Source: an uncultured bacterium (lineage in GTDB: Bacteria; Omnitrophota; Gorgyraeia; Zapsychrales; Aceulaceae). From it: DNA of 64,000 nt. Positions 5,457 through 57,835 of the stretch are shown here, piece by piece. The stretch spans positions 66,585-130,584 of the forward strand of contig CALGLP010000022.1 in the NCBI GenBank assembly GCA_937930175.1, written 5' to 3'. The notes under the pieces were generated by a model. That model made no database searches. It was not told the origin of the DNA and worked only from the letters and a program-made list of their open reading frames with translations. Position numbers and translations under genes: made by a program. Within the stretch, counting starts at the first letter, position 1. Every line of letters begins with the position of its first letter.

Positions 5457-6617
5457 ATGACAGAGAAAATTATTGCCCATGTGGACATGGATGCTTTTTT
5501 TGCTTCCATTGAACAGCGGGACAATCCCTTGCTTATGGGCAAACCTGTTATTGTGGGAGCTGATCCTAAAGAAGGTCGTGGTCGTGGCGTGGTGTCCACC
5601 TGCTCCTACGAAGCTCGTCGTTATGGCATTCATTCCGCGATGCCGATTTCAGAGGCCTATCGCAAATGCCCCCAGGCTGCCTTTCTTCCTGTGCGGATGG
5701 CGCATTATGGAGACGTGTCGCATCACATTTTTCTTTTGCTCAATCAATTCACACCGGATGTTGAACCTGTAAGCGTTGATGAGGCTTTTTTAGATTTAAG
5801 CGGGACAACCATGTTGCACGGCACACCTCTTGAGGCAGCGGCTAAGATTAAGCAACGGATTCATGACGAATTACATTTAACGGCCTCCATTGGGATTGCG
5901 TCCGTTAAGATGGTCGCGAAGATTGCCTCAGATCTTTGCAAACCTGACGGGCTTCTTGAGGTTAAAAAAGAGAATGTCCTGAGTTTTTTATGGCCTTTGG
6001 ATGTCGGTAAACTTTGGGGCGTGGGGCCGAAAACAAAATCTTTTCTAAATGAGCAAAAGATTTTTACGATCGGAGATTTGGCGAAAATAGATCAGGGCAA
6101 GCTTTATGATATGTTCGGCGAGCATGGATTGAATCTTTATGCGCTTTCGCATGGGATTGATGAGCGCGTGATCGAGGAAGGACAGGAAGCACAAAGTGTT
6201 AGCCATGAACATACCTTTGAGCGCGATACCGCGGATCGCGCAATGCTTCTTAAGGTTTTGCTTATGTTAAGTGAGAAGGTGTCGCGGCGGCTGCGGCTGG
6301 ATGATTTTAAGGGGCGCACGATTAGCATTAAAGTTCGGCTGGAAGGTTTTAAGACGTATACCCGTGCCGTCACGCTGCCAGAGTCAACGAATTTTGTGGA
6401 TGACATTTTTATGCATGTAAAAATGCTTTTCGAGAATCTTTATATTTGTGGTTCAAAGGTACGTCTTTTGGGCGTTCGGGTTTCTGGTTTTGGGAACCAG
6501 TATATGCAGGAGAGCTTGTTTGAGGATAAGAAAAAAGATAAAAAGGAGCAGGTTCATAAGGCGGTGGATTTGATCAAAGATAAATTTGGGGAGACGTCGA
6601 TTCATCGCGCGAGTTAA
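5457..6617 (+). CDS. dinB: DNA polymerase IV (Y-family translesion polymerase)
   Basis: N-terminus IAHVDMDAFFASIEQRDNP...PVIVGA, SxCSYEAR.YGI and the little-finger region match DinB/UmuC family hallmarks. Confidence 0.9.
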   Translation: MTEKIIAHVDMDAFFASIEQRDNPLLMGKPVIVGADPKEGRGRGVVSTCSYEARRYGIHSAMPISEAYRKCPQAAFLPVRMAHYGDVSHHIFLLLNQFTPDVEPVSVDEAFLDLSGTTMLHGTPLEAAAKIKQRIHDELHLTASIGIASVKMVAKIASDLCKPDGLLEVKKENVLSFLWPLDVGKLWGVGPKTKSFLNEQKIFTIGDLAKIDQGKLYDMFGEHGLNLYALSHGIDERVIEEGQEAQSVSHEHTFERDTADRAMLLKVLLMLSEKVSRRLRLDDFKGRTISIKVRLEGFKTYTRAVTLPESTNFVDDIFMHVKMLFENLYICGSKVRLLGVRVSGFGNQYMQESLFEDKKKDKKEQVHKAVDLIKDKFGETSIHRAS

Positions 6618-6629
6618 ATGCCCTTGAAA

Positions 6630-6744
6630 GGATTCTTAGTCTTGTCCTTGCGCGAGCTCTGCAGGCCTCAGATTTTATTAAATATTACTTTGCAGAACCT
6701 CTGAGGCCGAAGCCTGTTTGAGCGAAGGGCAAGACTAAGAATCC
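6630..6744. repeat. Copy 1 of a paralogous ~100-115-nt imperfect-hairpin element; ends are GGATTCTTAGTCTTG / CAAGACTAAGAATCC (15-bp inverted repeat) with an inner GCCTCAG/CTGAGGC stem
   Basis: Inverted repeats read directly. Colinear homology to 23842-23940, with compensatory changes in the outer stem (see findings). Confidence 0.5.
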
Positions 6745-7049
6745 TCTGAAGAAGCTTAAGTCTGTTGCAGGATATAAAAGATTGTTTTGACCATTCCAGG
6801 AACGCTCGCTTTTCCCCAGCGTGGAAAAGCTCGCTCGGCGTTTCGGTTTCGCTTTGTTGCCAGCAGCGAAACCTGGTTCGATTTCCACTAACGATATTTT
6901 TAGGAGAATCGAGCCATTTCAGCTTCATCTAAATTAAAACTAGGAAAACTGAAAAGGACAACGTCCTGTTTGGATCAAAACAATCTTTATTCGCCTAAGC
7001 GCTTTAAAATTCTTTGCAAAAAGGGGTTGTTGGCGATACTATATAAAGG

Positions 7050-7430
7050 ATGAAGAACATCGTGATTGACATCGATAACCTGCAGATTCGTGCTAAGCTC
7101 AACGGATCGCAAACCGCGGGGCAAGTCTGGGATGCCTTACCTATCACATCCTTCACAAGTCTTTGGGGCGATGAGGTGTATTTTCAGATTCCTGTGAAGG
7201 CCGAGATTGAGAAAGGATTCTCGTCTGAAACGGCCGAAATCGGGGATTTAGGTTATTGGCCCGAGGGGCAATGTTTTTGTATTTTTTTTGGGCCAACGCC
7301 GGTGAGTAAGCCAGGAGAAATTCGTCCAGCCAGCGCGGTCAATCTGATTGGTAAAATGGAAACTGATTGGCAGGCCTTAAAAACAGTACGTGAGAATCAA
7401 AAAGTAATAATGAAGGAAGATAAGGGTTAG
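7050..7430 (+). CDS. Conserved hypothetical protein (no confident family assignment; possibly a cyclophilin-like fold)
   Basis: 126-aa ORF with good coding appearance, tightly followed by rmuC; no recognisable catalytic motif. Confidence 0.4.
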   Translation: MKNIVIDIDNLQIRAKLNGSQTAGQVWDALPITSFTSLWGDEVYFQIPVKAEIEKGFSSETAEIGDLGYWPEGQCFCIFFGPTPVSKPGEIRPASAVNLIGKMETDWQALKTVRENQKVIMKEDKG

Positions 7431-9341: not shown

Positions 9342-9659
9342 ATGAATATGATTGTTTTGGTCACAGCCCAAAATAGTTCCCAGGCCAAAAGAATAGGCCA
9401 AGCCCTCCTGGAAGCTCATGTGATTGCCTGTGTCAACATTGTCCCCGGTGTCCAGTCACTTTTTTGGTGGCAGGGGAAAGTCGATTCGTCCAAAGAAGTT
9501 CTTATGGTCATGAAAACACAGAAACGGTGTTTTAATAAAATTGTAACGATTGTTAAGCGTCTTCATAGCTATCAAACGCCCGAGATTGTTGCGTTGCCGA
9601 TTGTCCTTGGCGAGCGAGCGTATATGCAGTGGCTAGAGGCATCGTGTTCATCCCGCTAG
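9342..9659 (+). CDS. cutA: Divalent-cation tolerance protein CutA
   Basis: ~105 aa; VIACVNIVPGVQSLFWWQGKVDSSKEVLMVMKT...YQTPEIVALPIV is the CutA1 signature. Confidence 0.85.
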   Translation: MNMIVLVTAQNSSQAKRIGQALLEAHVIACVNIVPGVQSLFWWQGKVDSSKEVLMVMKTQKRCFNKIVTIVKRLHSYQTPEIVALPIVLGERAYMQWLEASCSSR

Positions 9660-9777: not shown

Positions 9778-10290
9778 ATGAAGATTGTTGGACGGGTTGT
9801 TTTGATTGTGCTTGTTTTTTTGTTTGTGTTTGGGCTTTCACGAAGCCGCGCTCAGCTATTTACCTTTGGCGGCAGTCCTTTAGAGGGAAAGTCCGCGCCT
9901 GATTTTACATTATCAACGTTGACCAAGGGGCCTACGACCTTAAGCGCTTACCGCGGTAATCAGGCTGCGATTATTTTTTTCTGGGCCACGTGGTGTCCGC
10001 ATTGCCGCACAGCGCTGGAAGACCTTAATGCCCGCGCCCAAGAAATTCAAAGCCAAGGAATTAAAATCATTGTTGTTGATGTGGGAGAGTCTAAGGTTCA
10101 AGTACAAAACTATATTGATGAGCGTAACGTGACTTTGGATGTTTTTCTTGATGAAGAGTCGTTGGTTTCAAGCGATTATGCGGTCGTTGGCGTTCCAACC
10201 TTTGTTTTGATTGATAAAGAGGGAATGGTTAAGAGCGTTAAGCATGCCCTATCAGATGATTATCAGAAACTTCTTGATACAAGTAATTAA
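9778..10290 (+). CDS. TlpA/ResA-like periplasmic thiol-disulfide oxidoreductase (thioredoxin fold)
   Basis: Signal peptide/anchor followed by a WATWCPHC (CxxC) active site and the thioredoxin-fold motif VVGVPTFVLID. Confidence 0.85.
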   Translation: MKIVGRVVLIVLVFLFVFGLSRSRAQLFTFGGSPLEGKSAPDFTLSTLTKGPTTLSAYRGNQAAIIFFWATWCPHCRTALEDLNARAQEIQSQGIKIIVVDVGESKVQVQNYIDERNVTLDVFLDEESLVSSDYAVVGVPTFVLIDKEGMVKSVKHALSDDYQKLLDTSN

Positions 10291-11780: not shown

Positions 11781-12050
11781 GGACCCTCCTGAAAGTTTAT
11801 TCGTTGTGTGAAATTTAAATGATTATAACGACAAAATTTTCAGTTGGCAAGCTCCGTTAGCAATATCATGAGTGCTTCGGTTTTCCTTAATTCGGGATCA
11901 GCGCAAACCGATACGTCCTATTTTTATCTGAATTCGGCATGAGGGAGAATTGGGGCGTGATGCGTTGTTTCTGGCAGGCCCAGGGTTTTCGGGCAAACCT
12001 GTAAAACACATGCTATACTTTCCACTAACTCAACCTTTTTATATAAATAT

Positions 12051-15000
12051 ATGTTTTATTTATTGCAAAAACGATTTAAGACCTTTTTAAAGACTACAAG
12101 CTTAATCTTAGCTTTTGTCTTTGCGCAGGGGGTCTTTTTGCCTTTTCCAGCTTATGCCCAGGCTGTTTTTCCTCAAGCAGGACAGATCATTTCTTTAAGC
12201 TCTGCATTTACACCTACGATTGTTCGTGGAATCCGCATTTATCCTGATAATCCTTTAAAATTTGACTTTATTGTTGACGGTGGGGACGCTGACTTAAAAG
12301 GGGATGAGTTAAAGAGCGAAAGCGAAAAACTTATCCGCTACTTCCTGGCAAGTCTTACTCTTCCAGAGAATGATCTCTGGGTCAACCTTTCTCCCTATGA
12401 AAAAGACCGCATCGTTCCAGCAGAGCTTGGGACTACCGAGATGGGTATTGATATGCTTGCCCAAGACTATCTCTTAAAGCAAATAACTGCCTCTTTAACC
12501 AATCCTGATAGTGATCTTGGTAAAGAATTCTGGCAAAAGATTTACAAGCAATCCTATGAGAAATTCGGGACAACGAACGTTCCTGTCGACACCTTTAACA
12601 AGGTCTGGATCATGCCCGATAAGGCTGAAGTCTACGTTCAAGAGGATAAGGCCTTTGTCGTTGAATCGCGATTAAAAGTGATGCTGGAAAGTGATTATTT
12701 AGCAAGAGAGAAAAGTAAAGAAGATAGAAGGGAGAAGATAGAAGATGGAAAAAACAACGACAAGACAACAGCGAATAAAAGTCCTGATTCCCTAGATTCT
12801 AAGACTTTTCCATCTTCCATTGTCCATTCTCCATCTTCTGATATCTCTTCTAGTATTGTGCGTGAGGTCTTCATCCCTGTCCTTGAGAAAGAGGTGAATG
12901 AAGGCAAGAACTTTGCCCAGCTAAGGCAGATCTACAATAGCATTATCTTAAGCTACTGGTATAAGACCAATCTCAAGAACTCCATTCTTAATAAGGTGTA
13001 CGCGGATAAAAGAAAGGTTAAAGGACTAGAAGTCGTGAATAGTGAAAAGTATCTAGTATCTAGCCAAAAAAGCAATGAAGAGTCGTTAGAAAATGGCGAA
13101 GAAAAGCACCAGATACCAGATACTAGATACCCTTCACAGGTTCAAAGTAATTCTTTGCCAGATACTATTCACTCTTCACCAGATACTGTTCAGATTATCT
13201 ACCAACAATACCTCCAAACTTTTAAAAAAGGCGTCTGCAACATGATGAAGGTGGAGTATGACCCTTACACCAAAAAGAACATCCCCCGAAAATACTTTGC
13301 GGGAGGGGTGGTGTGGGATGTTGCACCAATTCTAGGCTATTTCTCAACGATCATCGGGCCTATGCCGCAGTGGGTTTTAACGTCCACGCTCGAAGATCCT
13401 TTGATGATGATCGAGTTTAATTCTGTGCCTGTAACAGAAGAGGTCTTCAACTCCGAAAAAGTTCGTGCGCAGGGGGTTGCGCAGGGAAGTTCTGAGCCCA
13501 TAACGATCAGCAGTAGCCTGAGGCCGTTATCCGATGAAACAAAAGCGCAGCTCGGCAAGCTTTTAAATGAATATGTGAAATGGGGTGGGACCACGGTGGT
13601 TGGAAAAACAGGTTTTTTTGCTTTTCTCAAAGCAAAATGGGGATGCGACGATCAAGTGCTTTCAGAGATCTTGGGCGTTAAGAGGAAATTTGCGAAATCT
13701 CTTGTCGAGGCGCGACAGGCGGGAGGGATTAGCGTTAGAAATATTTATGCATTTGTAGAAAGGTTTGGGTTTACGGGTAATGACGAGACAATTTTTTTTG
13801 GTCTTGCAAAACCTAAAAAAGATGTAAAGTTTTTGTCAGAGAATATGTTTAATTTGTTTGTTGAGATTAAGGTCGCAATGCCAAAGGTATTGTATCTTGG
13901 CATACCTGATAATTCCCCTAAAGAAGATCAAGGTTTTTTTGTGCCCAATCCAAATGGGTCGGGGGACACCTATGTTCCGCTGATAAGAAGAGTTTCCTTC
14001 GCCTCGTCAAATATTACAGGAGAGAATGATCTTCCTTTGAGCCCGCTCACGGGAAAACCGGATCTGCGTTCCCGCAAAGGTGATCCGGACACCTTAGAGC
14101 AGAAGATGGACGCATTAAAAAAAGCTATTCAAGGCGGTTATCCCTACGGGATTCGTTATGGCGTAAATAGACTTTTAGCAGCGGCGATTAATTCTCAAGC
14201 GAATCCCAGTCAAAGAATTCAGGCCTTAGAGTTTCTTGCTCAGCTACAGCTTCCTCAGAAGTTTATTGATCAGTTTTTATTCGAGAAATCCAAAGGCGAC
14301 AAAGAGCGCTGGTTGGCACAGGTGGCTGGGGATCGAGAAGCTAACCCTCGCCTGCGGGAGCTATGCATCCAGGTTCTGGCAGTTTTATCGCAACAGCTTG
14401 GTAGTCGCTGGAACTATGACCTGCTGGAGGAAGTTATCACTCGGGATAAGAAAAGGGATATCTCGGGGCTTCCGCTTGCTTCTACAGGCAAGCCCAACTT
14501 GCATCATCGCACAGGCCCTCACAGTACTCTTCGCCAGCTGATTGCTGATTTGCCGAGGCCTGGAAAAACTCCTGGAGGGATCCGCCATACCGTGAATGGT
14601 CTCTTGAGCATCGCGATCAATACAGAAAATTCTTCAGATAGGATCCTGGCTCTTCAAACGATTGCAGAATTAAAAATTGATCAAAAATATATCGATCAAT
14701 TTTTATTTGAGAAATCTAAAGGCGACAAAGAGCGCTGGCTGGTTGAGGTGGCAGAAGATCTGCAGGCTGAGCCGCATCTGAGGGCATTAAGTATCCAAAC
14801 CTTGTGGGTGCTGGCTCGGCAGTTCGGCAGTCCTTGGGCGTATAATTTGCTTGAAGATCTTGCTCATCCTAAAGCCGCGGGAGCGAACGCTCCCCAGGAA
14901 GTACAAGAGGCCTTGGATAGCTACGCAGGATATCTTAATTTTATTACAGATGCGGATTTGGTAATGACAGACCGTATTTTACCATCGGCACTCATTTATC

Positions 15001-18000
15001 ATATTTTTGGTGAGAACATTATTGAAATGTTTATGGCCTGGGGCAAGGTTGTAGATCCGCAACTTCCAGCTGCTGCTCGCCAAGAGAATGTGCAGCGCTT
15101 GATTGCTATTGCAAGGGGTGAGGGGGTGGAATATCAAGGCACGGATTTTCAAGCCGAAGCGCATAGCATATTGCTGCAGATGTCCACGACCACAAAGAGA
15201 GCTCTGCATCCAAAATTCCGGTACATGGCCCAGAAGTATATCGACAAAGCTCCGCCTAAGCCTTTGATGACCATATTGCGAAATCCTGATCCCAAGAAAC
15301 AAGAGACCTCTTCAAGCCTTGTTCAAAAACTTCAGGCAGAGCTTGAGGCATTCAAGGAAGTTGATTTTTCTGCACAAGCCCAAGAGTTAAAGAGCCACTA
15401 TAAAAGTTTTCTTCCCCGCAAGCGGCCAGAAGACCGTAAAAAACTTCAACAGGAGATCGAGAGTTTTTTGGGAGCGCTCAGGGATCTTCTTTCACAACAT
15501 CCGTTGCTCGCACGTTCAATGCGCTTGGCCCGCTATGATGTTTTAGGACGCGTTCAGAGGGTTTCCGATTGGCTGTCGTCGCATGCGCCATCCCCACCGG
15601 CATCCACCAGGGATCGTCTTAGCCTGGAAGCGGATCTGAACAAAGCGATCCGGATTTTGTCGATTCTGCAAAATAGTGCCTATGGACTCATGGATCTTAA
15701 GGTCTTGCCTCAACCCGGTCAAGAGAAGATTTTTTATTTAGAGGTATTTAGCGATGCGGTGATCCTTGCGAGCCTTGAAAACCAGAAAGACTGGAAGCCT
15801 GAGTATAAAGCGTGCTTCAGGGAGTTTCAAAAGATCATTGGTTCGGAAGCTGTTGTTGAAGCCTTTGCCTTGGGGCGCCGGGATTATGCTGTTTGTCTTT
15901 TGCAGATCCTGATTTCGTGGCAGGATTATCGACGAATCATGGAGGATCTGATTGAGCGGATCCCTGCAGAGAGCCTTGGTCGCGCCTTTGTCCGGGACAC
16001 ACAATCATTCTTGGGGGCTGTGCGGAAAATGGATCTGGCCATCAAAGAAAGCGGTGAGGCGATTTATGTGGACCGCTATCCGTTGACGATCGACCGCTTT
16101 CTTCAAAGATTTCCCGACCTTGCTTCAGTCTTTGGTGAGAGTTGTGGACAGAATTTCGGTTCTTTTGTTAACAGCATCGAAACACTTGCCGAGCGCGAAT
16201 CCCGCGATAAGCATCTTGAGGCGCATCTGGACGCCTTGGAGAGATTGTTTGTGCGAGTCTTTCCCCAGGTAAAAGACCGGCAACGCGCTGTCCGCGAACA
16301 TTTTCTGAATCTCGTTAATTTATCGCGTCAGGCTGTCCGCAGTGATCAGGCGTTCTGGGGTCTTGTGGAGTTGATCGGCGCTGATGCGCTCAGAGAAGAT
16401 TTCTTCTCTGACGACAATCGAGTGCTCGAACACCTGAATATTATCCTGCCAGCATGGTCCGGACTTGTTTCGGCGTTATCTGATCCTTCGCGTGATCTTG
16501 CCAAGCCGACAATAGCGTTCTTAGCCGCCTGGGTTGAGAACGCAAAAATGCCCGTTTCCAACGGGAAAAAGGTCTCCTCAAGCTCTCTGGAGAGTATTTT
16601 ACGAGATGAATTATCAGCATTCAGGGCTACGGATCTGGCTGTGCGTGCCAAGAGACTTAAAGCGCGCTATCAAAAAATGGCCAAAAAGATAGAGGGCAAA
16701 GAATATCCGGATGCAAAAGAAGCTGTACTTATTGAGAAATACGGAAAGAAACTTTTAAAGGATATGAGGACCTTTTTTAAGGACAAAACTCTTTTGTGTT
16801 CGACTGTTGAGCAGGCTGCGATCTTGCCAGAGTTGGCAGTCTTTAATCCCATGACTGATTTTCTTGCTGGTTTTTTACAGGTTAAGATCAAGATGAAATC
16901 GCCTCAGGATGTAATCGCCGTGCAGCGTGGAGCCATCGTGCAAGTGGAAAAGGTCTTAAGCGCGCTTCAAAATGGCCATTATGCCCAAGAAAATATCAAA
17001 GAGACGAAAGCTAAGTCTACCGGGGAAATTATTCAATATGTTGATCTTTTTGGGTTGGGGATGCGCGGGAAGAAGATGAACAGTTTTGTTGTGGAGAAAT
17101 CAGGCTTTAAGAAGTTCTCTGAGGGTTTTCAAATAAAGCCTGAGTTGATTTCTTTGCTCCAGGGCCTTCGCCATCTGCACGAAGAGAATCCAGGCTTGTA
17201 TTTGGAATTAGAAAAAGCCGCGCTTGATCCGGCGTATCAAATCCCTGAAACGATGCAAAATTCCGCGCATGCTCAGACCGTCGGTCTTTTTGATAAAGAT
17301 GGCGCAATGAAGCCCTTAGCTCGGATAACTCTTGTGGAAACTTTTAATGGGCCCGAGATGAGAAAACAATGGGCCGAAAATATCCGCATCCGGGAAACCG
17401 GCCAGGTTACGATTAGTTTTGATCGAAATGGCAAGGTCTTATCCGTAAGCCAGGGGGATATGGGTCAAAAAAGGCCAGCAAGCATCGGCAACGAGTATGT
17501 TCTTCTTAATGTTGATGTCACGAGTCGCGGTAACGAGCTTTATCTCGTAGAGAGTTCTTTTAAGTCTTTGCCGTATGTGGTAAGGAGAAGCTTGATGTGG
17601 CTTGCGTCAGGAGGCTTGTGGATCCGCGAGGATATTCCTTGTGACCTTGACCCAGAGACTGCCGCCTTAAGCCCCGAAAGGATCAGGGAAACGTTTTTGC
17701 ACCAGCCTAAGCCGAAAAGCTTGTCTGCGTATTTTGTTTCTCAGAAGGAAGCGATCCGCCGGGCCTATGCCGCCTACCTTGAGGACAAGAAACCCAAAAC
17801 AGCCAAAGATTTTGCCACCTTCGAGGAGCTGTACGCGCATGTAAACGCTGTATTGTTCTATGAAGGCATGTATTTTGAGCGAAGAGGGTTGGAATATTTT
17901 GAGGAATATTTCCATGAGGTGTCGGCCCAGATTAAAGAATTTGAGGATCTTTTTAGCGGGAATATCGATCTGGAGAAATTGTCCGCTTTTGAACTTTTCA

Positions 18001-21000
18001 TGAAGACGCTGGGTTTGGCTGATCTTAAAAGCCGGAGTGACCGCTATTATTATCAGGCGCGAGACTATTATTCCCGGATCCTTTATGGCAAACATTTCTG
18101 GGAAATGTATGCCGATCAAAAAGAAAGCTTAAGCGAGGCCCAGAAAAGCATCGTCCGGATCTCGATCGATTTCTTTCCGGGCCGCTACGATGAGGAGTGG
18201 GATGCTTGGCAGCAAAGATTTCAGGCCGAGCTCAATAGAAGAAAAACGCAAGGTCCGAAGTTTGCCCTAGAGGTCATTGCGGGCCTAAAATCTAAGGGCA
18301 TCAATCTGCAAGAGTTTGGGATGAGCCGGTTGATCGATCAAGTGCTGGGCTTAGGGGGCGAACGTTTGGCTCCTTCCGTTTACGCGGATGAACAATCTGT
18401 GCAGGATGGGACGGATTATTATCTCACTGACCAGATTCTGGAACGGCTTGACCTTAAGGCCTCGGATGTGTTCTATGATCTTGGCTCAGGACACGGGAGG
18501 GTTATTTTCTGGACGGCGTTTTCTACTGCGATCGGCAAAGCGGTCGGCATTGAATATGTTTCTGAATGGGCCAATCGTGCTAGCGACTTGGCTCTTAAGC
18601 ATAATATCTCGGATAGGGCGGTCTTTATTAATTCCAAGGTCCAGAATGTTGACTTCAGCGATGGCACGGTTTTCTTTCTTTATAATCCTTTCCAGGCTTC
18701 TACCCTTGCGCGCGTCACGGAAAAACTGCAGGCGATCGCCCGCCAGAAGAAAATCCGCGTGATTAGTGTAGGGGGTTGCAATGAACATTTCCTTTTACAA
18801 GGGACTTGGCTTAAAGTTGCGGAGATGATCAAAGGTAGCAGGGATGAGAGCGCTATCATTTTTGAGTCGACCATCGACTCCCCATCGGCGGCCGCGGGCC
18901 CTGCGGGCGATCAGCCGTCGGTGGGGAATCTGCCTCCTGATGTAAAGAATGCTATGTATTTCATCTTAGACTCAGATGGCGTTATTCTAAGGATCCCCGA
19001 GATTGATAAAGAACATGTTGCTTTTGTGTACGCTATGATGAAAAAGGAGATCACCGACCCTCAAGGGTTTGTTCCCAGCGAAGTGGATATGCAAGAAGGT
19101 CGTCAATTCAAAGAAAAGTATCCTGGCCACACAACCAAGGTAATCTTAAGGGAACTTTTAACTTCGTCCTTTGCTGACCGATTTAAAGGATTGGATACTG
19201 AAGAGCTTGTTTCGAAATTTGATCAAATTTATCGAGACCGAAAAAATGCTGAGGTTGATGAGATACTAAATCTTCCCCTGGAAGAAGCTGAAAAAAGATT
19301 GCTTATGCCCGGGGTTAAGAAATTTTTACAAGACAAGGTTAATCAAGGGGCTGTCTTGCGGGTCCTTTCTGGCGGGAGAGAAAGCGAAAAGCGGCGTATT
19401 TTTGAAAAACTTGGATTGATGGGTTTTTTTCAGGATGTCCAATTCGCAGGTACTAGAGAGAAGAAAATCGAAATCTTTGAAGACATGATCGCCAATATTG
19501 ACCATAAGGAGAATATTGTTATCGTGGATGATTCTCTTGAGAATATTGATGAGTATAGAAATGTCATCAGCCAGGGTCAAAAGCGTTCCGGGAAGTCTTT
19601 TCTTATCGGCTTGGCGAACAAAGAGCAAGAGGATCGCATGAAGCCGCACGCGGATTATGTGATTGAGGACTTAAGCGGCTTGGTAGCATCGTCGGCTAGT
19701 AAACTTGGTGATGAGGGGAAGGCGGGGGAGGGAAGCGCCGCCTCGACAAAAAATCTCAAGCGCATTGAAAATGTCCATGATTGGTTGGTCACTCCTGAGC
19801 GTGTTAAGGAAGTGACTCGTCGGGCTGTGGCCTTGGGGTGGAAAGAAGTTAGCAAGAAAACAGCGGATGATATACTTGATAAATTGAGAACTTACGGAAA
19901 TCGATATCCTTTAGATAAATATTCAACAGAGCGCGATCCTGGCAAAACCGTCATGATCAATTGGTGCGTCGATCAAGCTGTGAGGAAGCAGAGGGATCTT
20001 TTTTTTACGCAGGAAGGGTTGATATTCTTGGTCGCGGATCTTATGGATAAAAGTAAGGATTTGGCCAGGAGATTTCTGATTGACCTGGGAAATCTTGATG
20101 ATGCAAAGTTTAATAAAATACTTGAAAACGAGCTAAGGCCTAAGGCCATGAGCCATAGTAATTTCGCACCTGAGCGCATTGACGCCGTTGTTCATTGGCT
20201 GGCGCGTCCGGATAAAGAGTTTTTTCCAGTGAAGAAGAAAATGATTGATTCGCTCCTCAAGGCAGGGATGGAAGAGCTAGCCCAGATTTCTTATAAAAGC
20301 TTATATCTGCCTGACCGCCAATTAGGAGAGATTCAGCTTAATGATGACCAATACTGGATATTGTCCCAAATGAATTTTAAGGTTCTTCTTTTAGATTTGA
20401 TTTATCAAGATCCGGTTGCAGCCCAAGCACTGCTTGATCCCTTACTAGCGTCGATGGATAGCGAAAAAGAGATACTTAGCGCAAAATCGTATATCAATTT
20501 TGGAATTAAACAGATCGCAGGGATCCAGGGCGTGGTTGAGGAATATGTGCGGGATTATTTTGTTACTGTCGATGGATCAGCAAAAGAGACGTCTTCTTAT
20601 TCTGTCAGGATTGCGGGTATCATGCGTTCCTATATTCTGGAAGCATGGGAGAAATTGGCGGAGGATCATCTTGATGTTAGTACCACTGCTTATACGAAGA
20701 AAAAGAATCTTGTTGTTAATCTCTCGGGGGAAGATCTGGAGAGGTGTATTACGGCTATCAATACTTTCTTGAGAATGCATTTTGAAGATAAGTTGTTTAG
20801 TTTTTCCCTTGACGAAGGAGACCTTAGTATTTCGGTTTTAGATCAGCTAGAGGAGGATGCTGGCAGCAATCCTCAAGCTCAAGAGCTCCGTGATCTTGGA
20901 ATTCCTCCCGATGTTGGTGCGCAGGCTAAGGAAAAGGAAGGCATCTTCAGCCCTGTGGGCGAACAGCCGTCGGCGGGGGGAAAGGCTGTGCATTTGGAGG

Positions 21001-23612
21001 ACCGCGCTGTCCTTCAGGGCGATCTGCCGATTTCAGATGCCGAACGGGCGTCTTTGACTTTCATCAGGACAGTGCTAGAACGGGAAAGATGGCCAAAACG
21101 TAATGATATTTTTCTTCGGGATGCTGGAACTATCTTCGAGGGCCTGCTTCAAGGTGCCGCTGCTGTTTTATTTAAAAGGCTGTTGGTTGAGTTGCTTGGT
21201 AATGCATGGGACTATGGCGCTATAGATTCGCCAGACAGGAGTGTGCCCTGGGTTGTGGATCTTTATCAAAATGCTCAGAGTCAATATTTTTTAAAAGTAA
21301 TGATTTTCCAAGACCATATTTCGAAAGATGACTTGATGAGCCTGTTGTCGCATCAAGGTCTTTCTGCAAGGGATATTCTACAAGAGCAAAGCGTGATCGG
21401 GAAGGGCCTGGCTAAAAAAGGGCACGGGGCTTTTGAATCTTTCGCGCTTTTATCCAAAAAGGGCATTCCTTTGACATTAGAGTATTCCAGGGAGGGCAAG
21501 GGGTTAAAGACGGTTTTATGGGCCGGGATTTCTTCTCAAGCAGGCCAGGCGAAAGGACAACCTACCTTGGGATACGGCCAAGACTATTTGCAGACCACCA
21601 AGACGCAGGCAGGCTTGCCTAATCCAAACGAGCAGGGCGATCAGCTGCAAGCGGGGAAGGGAAGCAGTGCCAGCCCCATATTTCAGAAGACGCACAAAGC
21701 TGATCTTTATCAAAAAGCTAAAAAACTTTTAGATGAGATCTTCCCCCAGATACTCGAGGATTTTACCAAAGACCCGGGCAAGAAAGGATTTGAGGGGCCT
21801 GATGGTCTGATCGCCTTTATACGTCAAGAATTGGAAAAAAGGCTTGGGGAAAAGCTTTCAGATCCTCTCCTTGGTCAATTGCTGGGATTTGATAGCAAAA
21901 CTCTACGCGCAAAACTCAATAGCGTCGAAGGTTTGAGCCCTCTTCAAGACATCAAGATTCAAAAGCTTGTTGATCGGTATCCTTCCTTAAAAGATGAGGA
22001 AGCACGTCTGCGGGCCATTAATCAGGAAGTTTCTTTTGAGCAGGCTAAGATGGTGCTCAAGAGAATATTTAAGACAGCCCTTCGAGAATATGTTGAAGTC
22101 AAAGAAGGAACGACGTTCTGGGGTCCTGAGGGTTTCGCTCTGTTCTTGAAAAAGAAACTTGAATCAGAACTTGGTGTCAAGGAGATAACAAAGGGATTTT
22201 TTGGGAATCTACTTGGTTTTAGTGCGAATCGCTTAGAAGAACGGGGTGCCCAAAGCCTTTTGCCTAAAAACCAAGCCCAGCTTATGGATGAGCACGATTT
22301 GGATGATGTCGAACGAGAATATTTATCTGAGATTTGTGGCGGGAAAGAAATAGAAGTAGTCTTTCAACCTGAACCTGATTTTCCGAGAGTGGCCAGGCGG
22401 ACCTTGAAAGCATATCGGAAACAAGGGGGCACAAGGCTTTCAGGTAGCGACGGGTATTTTCGTTATCTTTTTGATAGAGTCGGCATGAAGGGCGTTAAAA
22501 AGATAGGTTATGATTTTAACGGGGCAGTAAGTAAACAAGCCGTTTGGTCATGGCTATCCGGCCACACCCCTTCAAAGGTGTTGCTGGAAAAAGTCGTTTA
22601 TGAGGCCTTCGCGACACTTACCCCGCTATTCAAAAAGTCAATGTTAAAAAGCTTGCTCGAGCTTCGCACAATGGAGATCGAAGCCGCCAAAAGCGCTATG
22701 CCACATTCCGAGCACACGGACGAAATTGAGGGTTCTTCTGATCCGGCGGGGGAGAGGGCGGATTTGGCAAACAAAGCAAGCAAAGACGAACGCTTTATTT
22801 TTACTGACATTATCGCAGAGGGCTGGATAGTTAATACCCAGTATTACAACAAGATCGTTGAATATGCTAATCAACGACTTAAGTATTTATTAAGCCAGAC
22901 TGAAAATGCTCAGAAACTTGAAGGGATTTATTTGGAAATCAGGAAAAAGGCGAAGAGTAAAAATTTGGTACTTGATATTAAGATTGATAAAAATCAAAAA
23001 GAAGATATTGGGGTGGTTGTGTTGACGCCGCAAATGGAGAATTTAGATCTTCAGGCGAGTAATATTGATATCGATGACACAGATTTTAAACACAGGCGAT
23101 TAGGAAGAAGTATTTATATTGCAGTGAACGATGCGCTTGGTTTTTATGGGCAAGGGGTTATTACAAGCAAGGGATTTTTTCTAGAAAGCAAGGGCATCTC
23201 ACCAGGAAAGAATTTATGGGAAAGTCTTGTTCGCGATGGATATGCTGAAAAGATTCTGGGAGCTGGTTACAGAATGCTTTCTTCCAGCAAAAGTCCAGAT
23301 GGTGTTGCTCCTTCGTCTTCGTTTGGGAATAATACACCAGAAGGGAAGAAATTGGGAGGGATTGATTTTAACGCCAAGAATATGAACGTTACGGCCACAG
23401 GTTCATCGTCTGTCGATTTTACCTTGCCTGAGGGCATCACGGCAGAGGGCCTGATGAACGCTCAAGGATTTGTGCCTGTTATTATTAGTATCACCCCGGT
23501 TGCGAATATCTGGACCTTGATGGGCCTCAATCGAGAGGACGCGCAAGAACTACAGCGTGTTCAAGGCCTGGGGGAGGCCATGGAGCCGGAAAAGATAAGT
23601 TTGGCAAGGTAG
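12051..23612 (+). CDS. Giant secreted multidomain protein (3853 aa): signal peptide; low-complexity S/E/K-rich region; HEAT-like repeats with a 142-aa tandem duplication; DOT1-like SAM methyltransferase domain; HAD-like hydrolase domain; GHKL (histidine-kinase/Hsp90-type) ATPase-like domain; C-terminal repeated ~95-aa modules
   Basis: Single uninterrupted ORF. Signal peptide MFYLL...FPAYAQA. Motifs DLGSGHG...GIE...VFFLYNPF (class I methyltransferase); ILDSDGVI...IVIVDDSLENI (HAD motifs I and III/IV); LLVELLGNAWDYGA (HATPase N-box). Confidence 0.85.
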   Translation: MFYLLQKRFKTFLKTTSLILAFVFAQGVFLPFPAYAQAVFPQAGQIISLSSAFTPTIVRGIRIYPDNPLKFDFIVDGGDADLKGDELKSESEKLIRYFLASLTLPENDLWVNLSPYEKDRIVPAELGTTEMGIDMLAQDYLLKQITASLTNPDSDLGKEFWQKIYKQSYEKFGTTNVPVDTFNKVWIMPDKAEVYVQEDKAFVVESRLKVMLESDYLAREKSKEDRREKIEDGKNNDKTTANKSPDSLDSKTFPSSIVHSPSSDISSSIVREVFIPVLEKEVNEGKNFAQLRQIYNSIILSYWYKTNLKNSILNKVYADKRKVKGLEVVNSEKYLVSSQKSNEESLENGEEKHQIPDTRYPSQVQSNSLPDTIHSSPDTVQIIYQQYLQTFKKGVCNMMKVEYDPYTKKNIPRKYFAGGVVWDVAPILGYFSTIIGPMPQWVLTSTLEDPLMMIEFNSVPVTEEVFNSEKVRAQGVAQGSSEPITISSSLRPLSDETKAQLGKLLNEYVKWGGTTVVGKTGFFAFLKAKWGCDDQVLSEILGVKRKFAKSLVEARQAGGISVRNIYAFVERFGFTGNDETIFFGLAKPKKDVKFLSENMFNLFVEIKVAMPKVLYLGIPDNSPKEDQGFFVPNPNGSGDTYVPLIRRVSFASSNITGENDLPLSPLTGKPDLRSRKGDPDTLEQKMDALKKAIQGGYPYGIRYGVNRLLAAAINSQANPSQRIQALEFLAQLQLPQKFIDQFLFEKSKGDKERWLAQVAGDREANPRLRELCIQVLAVLSQQLGSRWNYDLLEEVITRDKKRDISGLPLASTGKPNLHHRTGPHSTLRQLIADLPRPGKTPGGIRHTVNGLLSIAINTENSSDRILALQTIAELKIDQKYIDQFLFEKSKGDKERWLVEVAEDLQAEPHLRALSIQTLWVLARQFGSPWAYNLLEDLAHPKAAGANAPQEVQEALDSYAGYLNFITDADLVMTDRILPSALIYHIFGENIIEMFMAWGKVVDPQLPAAARQENVQRLIAIARGEGVEYQGTDFQAEAHSILLQMSTTTKRALHPKFRYMAQKYIDKAPPKPLMTILRNPDPKKQETSSSLVQKLQAELEAFKEVDFSAQAQELKSHYKSFLPRKRPEDRKKLQQEIESFLGALRDLLSQHPLLARSMRLARYDVLGRVQRVSDWLSSHAPSPPASTRDRLSLEADLNKAIRILSILQNSAYGLMDLKVLPQPGQEKIFYLEVFSDAVILASLENQKDWKPEYKACFREFQKIIGSEAVVEAFALGRRDYAVCLLQILISWQDYRRIMEDLIERIPAESLGRAFVRDTQSFLGAVRKMDLAIKESGEAIYVDRYPLTIDRFLQRFPDLASVFGESCGQNFGSFVNSIETLAERESRDKHLEAHLDALERLFVRVFPQVKDRQRAVREHFLNLVNLSRQAVRSDQAFWGLVELIGADALREDFFSDDNRVLEHLNIILPAWSGLVSALSDPSRDLAKPTIAFLAAWVENAKMPVSNGKKVSSSSLESILRDELSAFRATDLAVRAKRLKARYQKMAKKIEGKEYPDAKEAVLIEKYGKKLLKDMRTFFKDKTLLCSTVEQAAILPELAVFNPMTDFLAGFLQVKIKMKSPQDVIAVQRGAIVQVEKVLSALQNGHYAQENIKETKAKSTGEIIQYVDLFGLGMRGKKMNSFVVEKSGFKKFSEGFQIKPELISLLQGLRHLHEENPGLYLELEKAALDPAYQIPETMQNSAHAQTVGLFDKDGAMKPLARITLVETFNGPEMRKQWAENIRIRETGQVTISFDRNGKVLSVSQGDMGQKRPASIGNEYVLLNVDVTSRGNELYLVESSFKSLPYVVRRSLMWLASGGLWIREDIPCDLDPETAALSPERIRETFLHQPKPKSLSAYFVSQKEAIRRAYAAYLEDKKPKTAKDFATFEELYAHVNAVLFYEGMYFERRGLEYFEEYFHEVSAQIKEFEDLFSGNIDLEKLSAFELFMKTLGLADLKSRSDRYYYQARDYYSRILYGKHFWEMYADQKESLSEAQKSIVRISIDFFPGRYDEEWDAWQQRFQAELNRRKTQGPKFALEVIAGLKSKGINLQEFGMSRLIDQVLGLGGERLAPSVYADEQSVQDGTDYYLTDQILERLDLKASDVFYDLGSGHGRVIFWTAFSTAIGKAVGIEYVSEWANRASDLALKHNISDRAVFINSKVQNVDFSDGTVFFLYNPFQASTLARVTEKLQAIARQKKIRVISVGGCNEHFLLQGTWLKVAEMIKGSRDESAIIFESTIDSPSAAAGPAGDQPSVGNLPPDVKNAMYFILDSDGVILRIPEIDKEHVAFVYAMMKKEITDPQGFVPSEVDMQEGRQFKEKYPGHTTKVILRELLTSSFADRFKGLDTEELVSKFDQIYRDRKNAEVDEILNLPLEEAEKRLLMPGVKKFLQDKVNQGAVLRVLSGGRESEKRRIFEKLGLMGFFQDVQFAGTREKKIEIFEDMIANIDHKENIVIVDDSLENIDEYRNVISQGQKRSGKSFLIGLANKEQEDRMKPHADYVIEDLSGLVASSASKLGDEGKAGEGSAASTKNLKRIENVHDWLVTPERVKEVTRRAVALGWKEVSKKTADDILDKLRTYGNRYPLDKYSTERDPGKTVMINWCVDQAVRKQRDLFFTQEGLIFLVADLMDKSKDLARRFLIDLGNLDDAKFNKILENELRPKAMSHSNFAPERIDAVVHWLARPDKEFFPVKKKMIDSLLKAGMEELAQISYKSLYLPDRQLGEIQLNDDQYWILSQMNFKVLLLDLIYQDPVAAQALLDPLLASMDSEKEILSAKSYINFGIKQIAGIQGVVEEYVRDYFVTVDGSAKETSSYSVRIAGIMRSYILEAWEKLAEDHLDVSTTAYTKKKNLVVNLSGEDLERCITAINTFLRMHFEDKLFSFSLDEGDLSISVLDQLEEDAGSNPQAQELRDLGIPPDVGAQAKEKEGIFSPVGEQPSAGGKAVHLEDRAVLQGDLPISDAERASLTFIRTVLERERWPKRNDIFLRDAGTIFEGLLQGAAAVLFKRLLVELLGNAWDYGAIDSPDRSVPWVVDLYQNAQSQYFLKVMIFQDHISKDDLMSLLSHQGLSARDILQEQSVIGKGLAKKGHGAFESFALLSKKGIPLTLEYSREGKGLKTVLWAGISSQAGQAKGQPTLGYGQDYLQTTKTQAGLPNPNEQGDQLQAGKGSSASPIFQKTHKADLYQKAKKLLDEIFPQILEDFTKDPGKKGFEGPDGLIAFIRQELEKRLGEKLSDPLLGQLLGFDSKTLRAKLNSVEGLSPLQDIKIQKLVDRYPSLKDEEARLRAINQEVSFEQAKMVLKRIFKTALREYVEVKEGTTFWGPEGFALFLKKKLESELGVKEITKGFFGNLLGFSANRLEERGAQSLLPKNQAQLMDEHDLDDVEREYLSEICGGKEIEVVFQPEPDFPRVARRTLKAYRKQGGTRLSGSDGYFRYLFDRVGMKGVKKIGYDFNGAVSKQAVWSWLSGHTPSKVLLEKVVYEAFATLTPLFKKSMLKSLLELRTMEIEAAKSAMPHSEHTDEIEGSSDPAGERADLANKASKDERFIFTDIIAEGWIVNTQYYNKIVEYANQRLKYLLSQTENAQKLEGIYLEIRKKAKSKNLVLDIKIDKNQKEDIGVVVLTPQMENLDLQASNIDIDDTDFKHRRLGRSIYIAVNDALGFYGQGVITSKGFFLESKGISPGKNLWESLVRDGYAEKILGAGYRMLSSSKSPDGVAPSSSFGNNTPEGKKLGGIDFNAKNMNVTATGSSSVDFTLPEGITAEGLMNAQGFVPVIISITPVANIWTLMGLNREDAQELQRVQGLGEAMEPEKISLAR
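14040..14891. repeat. In-frame tandem duplication (2 x ~426 nt) inside the giant gene, encoding two HEAT-like 142-aa units (..IDQFLFEKSKGDKERWL..)
   Basis: TTTTTATT(C/T)GAGAAATC(C/T)AAAGGCGACAAAGAGCGCTGG occurs at 14274 and 14700 (period 426 nt); the protein units are ~60% identical. Confidence 0.8.
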
Positions 23613-23841
23613 TTTTTTTCTTGATCGATAGGATTGCCTTCTTCTTCTCAAAAGAGCCCAATCAGCCTTGCTTGAGCTTGTCTGGGTTTTTTCCGGAACG
23701 CTCGCTCCGCCCCTGTCACTCCAAACTTTTCTCGATTCTCGGCTTCGCTCTCCCTAGCGGGAGCCGTGCCCGCTCATCCTCGAAACGTCCGTCAAAAGCC
23801 CAGCCAAGCTCTTTTAACGGGTGGATTTAGAAAGGCGCGTT

Positions 23842-23940
23842 GGCATTGTCCTCTCGCGAGTTTTGCAGGCTTCAAGTTTCCTTGAATTTTAAATTTAGAT
23901 AAAGTTGGGGCCGAAGGATGTCTGAGCGAAGGACAATACC
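23842..23940. repeat. Copy 2 of the paralogous hairpin element (GGCATTGTCC ... GGACAATACC ends), homologous to 6630-6744
   Basis: Colinear alignment with copy 1; shared blocks TTGTCCT..GCGAG.T.TGCAGGC.TCA and GGCCGAAG..TGT.TGAGCGAAGG.CAA.AC. Confidence 0.5.
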
Positions 23941-24122
23941 GGCACGCCTATAAGCAACAGTATCGCCTGAGTAATTTTTGCTCAAATTATCTAAGTGCTC
24001 CTGCAAGGAGAAGACAATCTCTGCGCTTTCCCTTTACAACCAATTTCCCTAAATGTATAATGCGTTTTCTTAATTTTCTGTTATAATGAAAAAAATTATT
24101 AATAATCATGGGGATAAAAGTG

Positions 24123-46000: not shown

Positions 46001-46432
46001 ATGAAGATAACACAGATTTCTATTTTTCTCGAAAATAAACGTGGGCGGCTTTGCGAGGTGGCAGAGTTGCTAGGGAAGAACAATATTAACATTCGTGCGC
46101 TGACGATTGCCGATGCCAAGGATTTTGGTGTCTTGCGTATTGTTGTGGATAAGCCTCAGGAGGCGGTCGGGATTTTGAAAGAGCACAAGATGGTTGCGAC
46201 CTTGACGGATATTGTGGTCACGGAGGTTGGGGATCAGCCTGGTGGACTCGCAAGCGTGTTGCGGCTTTTGGATGACAACAAGATCAACGTTGAATATATG
46301 TATGGATTTGTTGAAAAGTTTTCAGACAAGGCACTGATGGTCTTTCGTTTTGATAATACAGATGAAGCGATCAAGCTTCTGCAAAAAAATAATTTTAAAG
46401 TGATCAAAGAAGAAGAAATTAAAAGTCTTTAG
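46001..46432 (+). CDS. ACT-domain protein (two ACT repeats)
   Basis: Two beta-alpha-beta-beta-alpha-beta ACT-like units (ITQISIFLENKRGRL..., TLTDIVVTEVGDQPGGL...); commonly co-located with paaK/iorAB. Confidence 0.75.
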   Translation: MKITQISIFLENKRGRLCEVAELLGKNNINIRALTIADAKDFGVLRIVVDKPQEAVGILKEHKMVATLTDIVVTEVGDQPGGLASVLRLLDDNKINVEYMYGFVEKFSDKALMVFRFDNTDEAIKLLQKNNFKVIKEEEIKSL

Positions 46433-46440
46433 AGATTTCA

Positions 46441-46475
46441 GGGGCCCCAAGGCAAGTGCCTTGGGGCCCTTTGAA
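46441..46475 (+). terminator. Rho-independent terminator after the ACT gene: GGGGCCCCAAGG-caagtg-CCTTGGGGCCC followed by TTTG
   Basis: 12-bp GC-rich perfect stem followed by a short T tract. Confidence 0.7.
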
Positions 46476-46527
46476 GAAAAAGATTAATTATTTCTTAAAG
46501 GGATTTTAGAATAGGAGGGGTTAAATT

Positions 46528-57553: not shown

Positions 57554-57582
57554 ATGGCTTGCCTTTGCCAAAAAAAGGTAAA

Positions 57583-57812
57583 GGGTATCCGCAAAAAGCG
57601 GACCCGTTTTTAGCGAGAATTCGGACAGTGATTTTATGATTATTTGTCTCCGCCAAGAGCGGCGGAGGGTATCTGCAAAGAGCGGACCCGCCTCTGGCGG
57701 GAATTCGGTCGAACAATTTAGGTTCCTTGTGTAATTTGAAGTTTTGTTTAAGGAAACCCCGCGTCGCTTGTGCTCCTGGGGTAAATTCGCACAGTGATTT
57801 ATGATCACTGTG
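57583..57812. repeat. Repeat/palindrome-rich radA upstream region: ~55-nt direct-repeat units (GGGTATC(C/T)GCAAA(A/G)AGCGGACCCG...GAATTCGG...), a CTCCGCCAAGAgcGGCGGAG hairpin (57648-57667), and palindromes ACAGTGAT-ttatg-ATCACTGT and CATAAAT-n9-ATTTATG
   Basis: Direct and inverted repeats read directly from sequence; the ACAGTGATTT(T)ATGAT motif occurs twice (about 57624 and 57791). Confidence 0.5.
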
Positions 57813-57835
57813 TTCCATAAATCACGTGCTCATTT

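Follow-up and report, generated by a model that had tools for sequence, protein, structure and literature searches.

We find that two intergenic hairpins in a 64,000-nt stretch of DNA from an uncultured Omnitrophota bacterium (hereafter the window), together with a second structured module that accompanies each of them, probably belong to a new family of hairpin repeats that is lineage-restricted, mosaic, and insertion-polymorphic and that resembles the REPIN, ERIC, and BOX elements; we would put the probability of this reading at about 65%. We denote the hairpin HP and its companion module M2. The family is previously undescribed and of a familiar kind, and is not a new kind of RNA gene. Its members are inserted at sites that stand empty in related genomes, are dispersed, are combined into mosaics, and have had their structure maintained. 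Comparable repeat families have been described in many bacteria. The Omnitrophota are uncultivated, with very small cells, compact genomes, and giant genes, and our literature search found no publication on their repeat content.

The window has a GC content of 44% and its plus-strand genes are tightly packed. The gene settings of both HP copies are given here by window position:

5457-6617 (stop codon 6615-6617): dinB, the upstream neighbour of HP copy 1
6618-7007, no strand assigned: insertion block of locus 1, about 390 bp, from the dinB stop codon to the promoter-like sequence of the next gene, delimited by gap comparison
6623-6751, plus strand: HP1, hairpin copy 1; inverted repeat, MFE -59.8 kcal/mol (z -7.7), nhmmer E 4e-32, covariance model (CM) 120 bits
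6777-6988, plus strand: M2a, a copy of M2 of the long subtype; inverted repeat 6777-6801 against 6964-6988, nhmmer E 5e-26
7014-7047, plus strand: promoter-like sequence of the cyclophilin-like gene (TTGCAA, 17 nt, TACTAT/TATATAAA), intact directly past the insertion
7050-7430: cyclophilin-like gene, the downstream neighbour of HP copy 1
12051-23612: giant ORF of 3853 aa, the upstream neighbour of HP copy 2, whose downstream neighbour is hisG
23623-24026, no strand assigned: insertion block of locus 2, about 400 bp, from the giant-gene stop codon and a T-run to the conserved hisG promoter
23674-23811, plus strand: M2b, a short, diverged copy of M2; nhmmer E 4e-23, closing stem GAGCTTGTCTGGG.../...CCCAGCCAAGCTC
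23826-23950, plus strand: HP2, hairpin copy 2; MFE -40.1 kcal/mol (z -3.7), nhmmer E 1e-35, CM 119 bits
24033-24061, plus strand: hisG promoter-like site (TTTACA, 17 nt, TATAAT) with 11 of 12 consensus matches, adjoining the end of the insertion

An earlier note, made from the letters of the window, had described the two hairpins as paralogous copies that align colinearly with roughly 65% identity, and this is borne out. They are colinear over about 125 nt, with 65% identity across the hairpin core in a MAFFT alignment and 71% identity over 111 nt in blastn (E 1.5e-12). The shared blocks that the note had listed are found in both copies (TTGTCCT, CGCGAG, TGCAGGC, GGCCGAAG, and TGAGCGAAGG). Copy 1 does carry the perfect 15-bp inverted arms ascribed to it, GGATTCTTAGTCTTG (6630-6644) and CAAGACTAAGAATCC (6730-6744), and its inverted repeat reaches 27 nt at 89% complementarity (6623-6649 against 6725-6751). 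Compared with dinucleotide shuffles, both sequences form much more stable folds (z -7.7 in copy 1, z -3.7 in copy 2). That neither gap holds a credible ORF also proved correct: the sole ORF is one of 86 aa on the minus strand (6668-6928), with no Pfam hit and no conservation across the other copies. The second shared module is present at both loci as proposed, is larger than had been claimed (6777-6988 and 23674-23811), and differs in its order relative to the hairpin, with HP followed by M2 at locus 1 and M2 followed by HP at locus 2.

A search for further copies, which the note had recommended, recovered five more HP copies in related contigs (given here as L numbers), with nhmmer E values of 1e-23 to 1e-42. 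This brings HP to seven copies and M2 to six, spread over 6-7 loci with different gene contexts, and a covariance model applied to 308 kb of sequence returns exactly these seven HP copies. Within the 64-kb window itself, blastn, nhmmer, and the covariance model found no third copy of either HP or M2. One copy occupies the gap downstream of dinB in L005; in L011 HP lies upstream of a UvrD-like helicase gene, in L015 downstream of another gene, and in L012 upstream of a putative dtd (D-aminoacyl-tRNA deacylase) gene, as read by eye from its N-terminal sequence. The L022 contig comes from NCBI assembly GCA_036722365.1. Its sequence is found in Logan run ERR7850083, which also carries the exact dinB of the window, so L022 probably represents the same population; the HP copies known for this genome number two, and probably three. 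Copies of HP are 52-86% identical to one another, and the closest pair, L005 and L015 (86%), are at different loci.

The pattern GGCCGAAGNNTGTNTGAGCGAAGG had no matches in species-representative genomes or metagenome contigs. A looser two-block pattern gave five matches among metagenome contigs, three of them real (L011, L012, and L015); the other two, L013 and L014, were rejected as chance matches in sequence of 61% GC. Both patterns had zero matches among 185,579 species-representative genomes, a set that does not include the host genome, and no family match was found among viral contigs, plasmids, and phages. The homologues of DinB, HisG, and the helicase all come from Candidatus Omnitrophota MAGs. 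Under our preferred reading, HP and M2 are confined to a small clade within Candidatus Omnitrophota.

Comparison of the copies separates what is constant in each module from what varies. HP has four parts: its outer stem spans 19-27 bp, next come a short helix (UCGC/GCGA) that is conserved and internal-loop blocks that are invariant, and a variable apical stem topped by an AU-rich loop completes the hairpin. Its most conserved nucleotides are not at the tips but in the sub-terminal internal-loop blocks (TTGTC, CGCGAG, and TGTnTGAnCGAAnG). The invariant CGCGAG lies opposite UGUnUGAnCGAA, and from their letters these internal-loop blocks could pair as tandem G-A. The arms share the TTGTC..CGCGAG and TGTnTGAnCGAAnG blocks and are not self-palindromic. 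HP2 has the typical family outer stem (GGCGCGTTGGCATTGTCC/GGACAATACCGGCACGCC) and is 74% identical to the L011 copy, while HP1 is an outlier subtype: the six other copies carry the outer stem GGCGTGTTGGCR.../...YGCCAAYAYGCC, from which the outer 12 bp of HP1 depart at six positions, all six of them compensated. The 15-bp arms of copy 1, which the note calls terminal inverted repeats, are therefore not conserved as such in the family.

In M2 a long stem closes the fold, and within it are a conserved helix, CAGGAACG/CGTCCUG, and 2-4 internal hairpins. It occurs as a short subtype of 125-140 nt and a long subtype of 212-220 nt with two extra hairpins, the latter common to M2a and the L022 copy, which are about 80% identical. 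M2a has a closing stem of 17-25 bp, then CAGGAACG/CGTCCTG, then the internal hairpins, with the two extra ones at about 6877-6955. The closing stems differ in every copy of M2, and loops such as CCAGCGY are conserved. M2 stands directly before HP at five loci (L011, L012, L015, L022, and window locus 2); the reverse order is seen at window locus 1 alone, and L005 has HP without M2. The L012 copy of M2 carries a different insert of about 80 nt within a hairpin loop. A third, nested module was considered and rejected: the extras of about 80 nt in two M2 copies share the 10-mer TTTCCACTAA (window 6882-6891; L012 936-945), and this 10-mer is also found at the conserved promoter region of the giant gene (12019-12028). 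Allowing one mismatch, it is no commoner in the window than expected by chance, so the sharing is probably coincidental, and the extra of M2a is a subtype feature that L022 has too, not a nested third module. Two independent Logan short-read assemblies of the dinB locus, L003 (1881-1932) and L004 (1423-1474), end at the identical base within M2a (...CAGCGTGGAAAAG). Such ends are expected where a repeat breaks an assembly, and they are consistent with near-identical M2 copies elsewhere in the window population.

Compared with close relatives, the window carries an insertion at each of the two loci. Gene order is kept in the relatives at both sites, and the gaps are far shorter. The gap between dinB and the cyclophilin-like gene measures 432 bp in the window, 174 bp in L005 (DinB 82% identical), and 42 bp in both L006 (78%) and L009/L010 (69%). 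In L006 and L009 the dinB stop codon directly abuts AATTCTTTGCAAAA...TACTATATA...ATG, and the sequence from AATTCTTTGCAAAA to the ATG is conserved among the window and its relatives. At the second site, the gap between the giant gene and hisG is about 510 bp in the window, 107 bp in L016/L017 (HisG 93% identical), and 112 bp in L018/L019 (91%), while in L020/L021 (88%) it is 248 bp and consists of unrelated filler; the hisG promoter-like site is kept in L016, L018, and L020. Because the gaps of the relatives are much shorter and the next promoter is intact, the window loci are insertions, of about 390 and 400 bp. A third site, between a small gene and the UvrD-like helicase gene, spans 465 bp in L022 and at most 52 bp in L024, L025, and L026 (helicase identity 78-80%, and 89% for L011). 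It holds M2 and HP in L022, holds them in the opposite orientation in L011, and is empty in L024, L025, and L026. The motif TTAAA is present on both flanks of the locus-1 block, where the sequence is AT-rich, of low complexity, and overlaps the stop codon; at locus 2, comparison of the block flanks with relatives revealed no target-site duplication.

Several smaller observations concern these same sites. The gap between the giant gene and hisG in L020 (8727-8974), like that in L021, holds about 140 bp of unrelated filler sequence with its own inverted repeats (e.g. CCGAAAC...GTTTCGG), and other hairpin inserts apparently turn over at this site. The empty helicase site of L024 contains (9952-9990) a perfect 12-bp hairpin, TTAGGGGTCAGA-GTCGCAA-TCTGACCCCTAA. 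Its stem is similar to the HP stem base found in L022 and L012 (GGGTTAGA / GGTCAGAG), and the hairpin may have been the target at the outset, may be a footprint left by excision, or may be there by coincidence. The promoter-like sequence of the cyclophilin-like gene (TTGCAA-17-TACTAT, 7014-7042) scores below the threshold of our consensus scan. In the window as in the relatives, the -10-like TACTATATAAA (window 7037-7052) ends 2-5 nt ahead of the ATG of this gene (7050), which suggests a leaderless transcript or a later true start; an alternative call, with a GTG start at 7062, gives 122 aa.

HP is found in either orientation, with five copies sense and two antisense to their flanking genes. 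The L005 gap contains an HP member in reverse orientation (nhmmer E 1.5e-32), and at both of the orthologous sites that are occupied in two genomes the element is inverted between them (window against L005; L022 against L011). The opposite orientations would reflect either insertion hot spots or inversion in situ, and the occupied sites could also go back to one ancestral insertion that was then rearranged, instead of to repeated mobility. A solo HP arm with its flank (GGATAATGCCRGYACRCCTA...TCGCTCAAA) adjoins the full M2+HP unit in L011 (9888-9935) and in L022 (about 9582-9625). In L022 the solo arm runs opposite to the full element, and inverted solo arms could act as mediators of orientation flips between genomes.

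We then considered what the compensatory changes in the stems can say about the nature of these elements. The covariation cited in the earlier note is present, with C-G in copy 1 and A-T in copy 2 at the matching stem position (alignment columns 38/131), and in a larger alignment of six to seven copies the signal is real and stronger. The stem covariation is genuine in both modules. For HP (six copies), 84.7% of stem cells are paired and 12 pairs are changed on both sides, against 5.2 +/- 1.7 in shuffles, none of 500 reaching 12, and 2-3 such pairs in slid controls. For M2 (five copies), 88.3% of stem cells are paired and 13 pairs are changed on both sides (shuffles 4.9 +/- 1.4, 0 of 500 reaching 13; slid controls 1-10), with covariation extending into the internal hairpins. 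The further step that the note had taken, from covariation to a conserved RNA structure "rather than simple sequence repetition", fails on three counts. REPINs share this signature, compensatory changes on both sides of the hairpin being common in them (PMC3116915). Template switching during replication can create and repair perfect stems in single events, without selection at the RNA level (PMC8794818), and this fits the fully compensated outer stem of copy 1 with no need for such selection. Finally, the strand signals are inconsistent. The strand in the HP orientation folds 7-25 kcal/mol better than its complement in six of the seven HP copies, and G-U cells outnumber A-C cells by 13 to 4, an excess that comes mostly from one inherited column; for M2, the opposite strand folds better in all six copies, and G-U and A-C cells number nine each. 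The G-U/A-C counts and the MFE asymmetry point opposite ways for HP and M2, and the covariation identifies no transcribed strand.

A rival hypothesis is that HP and M2 are cis-acting structured RNAs, selected for their RNA fold as parts of the 3' UTRs of upstream genes or of the leaders of downstream genes, in which they would serve as transcript-stabilising stem-loops, non-canonical terminators, or insulators between neighbouring transcription units. All three copies of the window population are sense to co-oriented flanking genes and occupy exactly the stretch from a stop codon to the next promoter, their stems covary, and the HP strand has the better fold and the G-U excess described above; in addition, BOX, REP, and ERIC repeats are believed to act on genes transcribed along with them (PMC3049150). 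However, close relatives have the same gene pairs without the element, L005 and L011 carry it antisense at the very same sites, the strand preference of M2 is opposite (6/6, with G-U and A-C equal at nine), the G-U excess of HP is largely that of one inherited column, and neither hairpin has a U-tract. We consider this hypothesis rather unlikely as an account of what the elements are, and a cis-acting RNA role is compatible with a mobile origin. The covariation of the internal hairpins of M2, together with the strand preference of HP, would also fit a transcribed functional RNA.

A more speculative proposal, which we regard as unlikely, is that HP and M2 are folded single-strand recognition modules of a structure-dependent mobility or maintenance system so far undescribed in Omnitrophota (HUH/RAYT-like, IS200/IS605-like, or RNA-mediated), or else a new class of structured RNA multiplied in this lineage. 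Under a related sub-hypothesis, the variable yet complementary outer stems might result from insertion into the loops of pre-existing hairpins, for which the 12-bp hairpin of L024 may be compared.

It is also conceivable, and in our judgement quite improbable, that the modules constitute an independent family of trans-acting small-RNA or ribozyme genes with their own promoters, M2 forming a multi-hairpin junction and HP a long hairpin whose tandem G-A internal loop is conserved. Such a family would account for the architecture of M2, with its closing stem, 2-4 internal hairpins, covariation in each helix, and conserved loops, and for the invariance of the internal-loop blocks of HP. Since HP and M2 are missing from Rfam, any such RNA would be undescribed. 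Against it, a consensus scan detected no promoter-like site within or just upstream of HP or M2, the paralogues in one genome are only 50-65% identical, and the two sequence patterns went unmatched in all 185,579 species-representative genomes. Presence or absence among near relatives, variable orientation, and truncated or solo fragments are likewise unlike conserved RNA genes. A resemblance due to chance, or to one local segmental duplication within the window and no family at all, would agree with the window holding two copies only and is refuted by the blastn E value of 1.5e-12 between them, the five further copies elsewhere (nhmmer E 1e-23 to 1e-42), and flanking genes that differ at each locus.

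Known classes of element were also tested and rejected. At the Rfam gathering threshold the whole window yields one tRNA only, with no family for HP or M2, and permissive scans of both gaps gave nothing beyond sub-threshold chance matches (E 0.4-6), so a known Rfam RNA was set aside at either threshold. Intrinsic terminators were rejected, there being no U-tract after either hairpin; a canonical terminator at 46440-46472 shows the form that these take in this genome. It belongs to a stretch (46002-46472) that comprises an ORF of about 143 aa, below the 150-aa cut-off of the ORF list and ACT-domain-like by eye, followed by a textbook intrinsic terminator (AGGGGCCCCAAGGCAAGTGCCTTGGGGCCCTTT). The sole extra match of the HP covariance model (46430-46479) is weak and is this ordinary terminator 3' of the small ORF. 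A 6S-like or other housekeeping RNA does not fit elements that are not syntenic and are missing from relatives, and a type I toxin or small ORF does not fit modules with no conserved ORF. Integron attC sites need conserved R''/R' core sites (RYYYAAC/GTTRRRY), a variable interior, and cassette arrays next to intI. HP is not an attC site because its interior is conserved and its outer stem variable, and because it has housekeeping neighbours, no array, and no integrase.

The alternatives that the earlier note had offered were a structured RNA and a MITE-like repeat. Of these, the repeat stands, the elements being dispersed, insertion-polymorphic, present in both orientations, and clustered with M2, while covariation as proof of an RNA does not. 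The preferred reading, a family of hairpin repeats, can be compared with the known systems one by one. ERIC/IRU elements are imperfect palindromes of about 127 bp that occur in transcribed intergenic regions in either orientation and whose presence varies among related genomes. HP resembles them in palindrome size, in its occurrence in either orientation, and in its presence/absence variation, but its sequence is unrelated, it lies outside Enterobacteriaceae and Vibrio, and its outer stem is much more variable. REP sequences are short palindromes whose core 16-mer is invariant; their copies number in the tens to hundreds, and the genome has a REP-flanked RAYT gene. REPINs are mobilised by RAYT transposases and are known in Pseudomonas and E. 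coli. REPINs are inverted REP doublets predicted to fold as single-stranded DNA or mRNA (PMC3116915). Like REPINs, HP is an extragenic hairpin of about 100 nt in which two inverted, conserved arms and a spacer form a hairpin with compensatory changes, and singlets or remnants occur beside higher-order clusters (PMC3116915). The arms of HP are not, however, short self-palindromic REPs with a conserved 16-mer, and its best-conserved blocks are internal loops.

The BOX elements of Streptococcus pneumoniae are modular, cluster with other repeat families, and occur in one species group (PMC3049150). With their boxA-boxB(n)-boxC architecture, and alongside RUP and SPRITE, they have paired end modules, a variable number of internal hairpins, and low current mobility (PMC3049150). 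The short and long subtypes of M2 and the clustering of HP with M2 fit the BOX pattern, although there is no sequence relationship and the phylum is another one. BOX and RUP also carry target-site duplications and defined terminal inverted repeats, and neither feature is demonstrable for HP or M2. As MITEs are defined (PMC3049150), HP and M2 agree in being short and non-coding (HP about 125 nt, M2 125-220 nt, with no conserved ORF or Pfam hit) and in being dispersed and insertion-polymorphic, with three orthologous sites empty in relatives. They do not have sequence-conserved terminal inverted repeats, as the outer stem of HP1 and all M2 closing stems illustrate. They are like MITE/Correia elements (IS-derived, with terminal inverted repeats and target-site duplications) in being small, non-coding, highly base-paired, and insertion-polymorphic, and unlike them in that terminal sequences vary between copies, target-site duplication is not demonstrable, no cognate IS was found at the loci examined, and the elements are not AT-rich (43-53% GC, against 44% for the genome).

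Several points argue against the repeat reading. No transposase, RAYT, or IS with matching ends was found among the called genes of the roughly 345 kb examined, only two or probably three HP copies are known for this genome, no clear target-site duplication was found, and the termini, unlike classical MITE inverted repeats, are not conserved in sequence. The fit to a transcribed functional RNA and the possible single ancestral insertion, both noted above, count on the same side. If HP and M2 are indeed repeats, they would build up into mosaic blocks of about 400 bp at the few sites that a very compact genome leaves open, each such site lying past a stop codon and ahead of the promoter that serves the next gene. 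It would be a single-stranded fold that is propagated or maintained, and the elements themselves would be non-autonomous. A trans-acting enzyme might handle the DNA hairpin, as RAYT-type transposases do for REPINs; alternatively, replication template switching may keep the hairpin perfect. Once inserted and co-transcribed with the upstream gene, the elements would probably behave like REP, ERIC, or BOX sequences, as stable 3' stem-loops or insulators. Any such effect of these elements on adjacent transcription units would be secondary to their origin. For BOX elements, the influence on co-transcribed genes is believed to be exerted through secondary structure (PMC3049150).

The HP/M2 family opens no long-standing question. 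It could provide strain-typing markers, explain assembly breaks in these MAGs, and offer a clean demonstration that covarying stems are not enough to tell RNA genes from mobile DNA hairpins. It could also serve as a natural experiment on how a folded insert of 400 bp, placed past a stop codon and ahead of the next promoter, affects the adjacent genes of a compact genome.

Other parts of the window hold repeats of their own. A 282-bp gap between two plus-strand genes (57554-57835), in which nothing reaches the Rfam gathering threshold, contains a 43-nt motif twice (57582-57624 and 57666-57708; 84% identical; AGGGTATCYGCAAARAGCGGACCCG...GAATTCGG) and, near 57791-57813, a separate inverted repeat, CACAGTGATT/AATCACTGTG. 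The upstream region of the giant gene (11781-12050; GGGTTTTCGGGCAAA...TATACTTTCCACTAAC) is conserved at 16190-16250 of L009, the relative with 69% DinB identity, and the giant ORF itself has internal repeats 426 nt apart (14236-14371 and 14662-14797) that are 72% identical.
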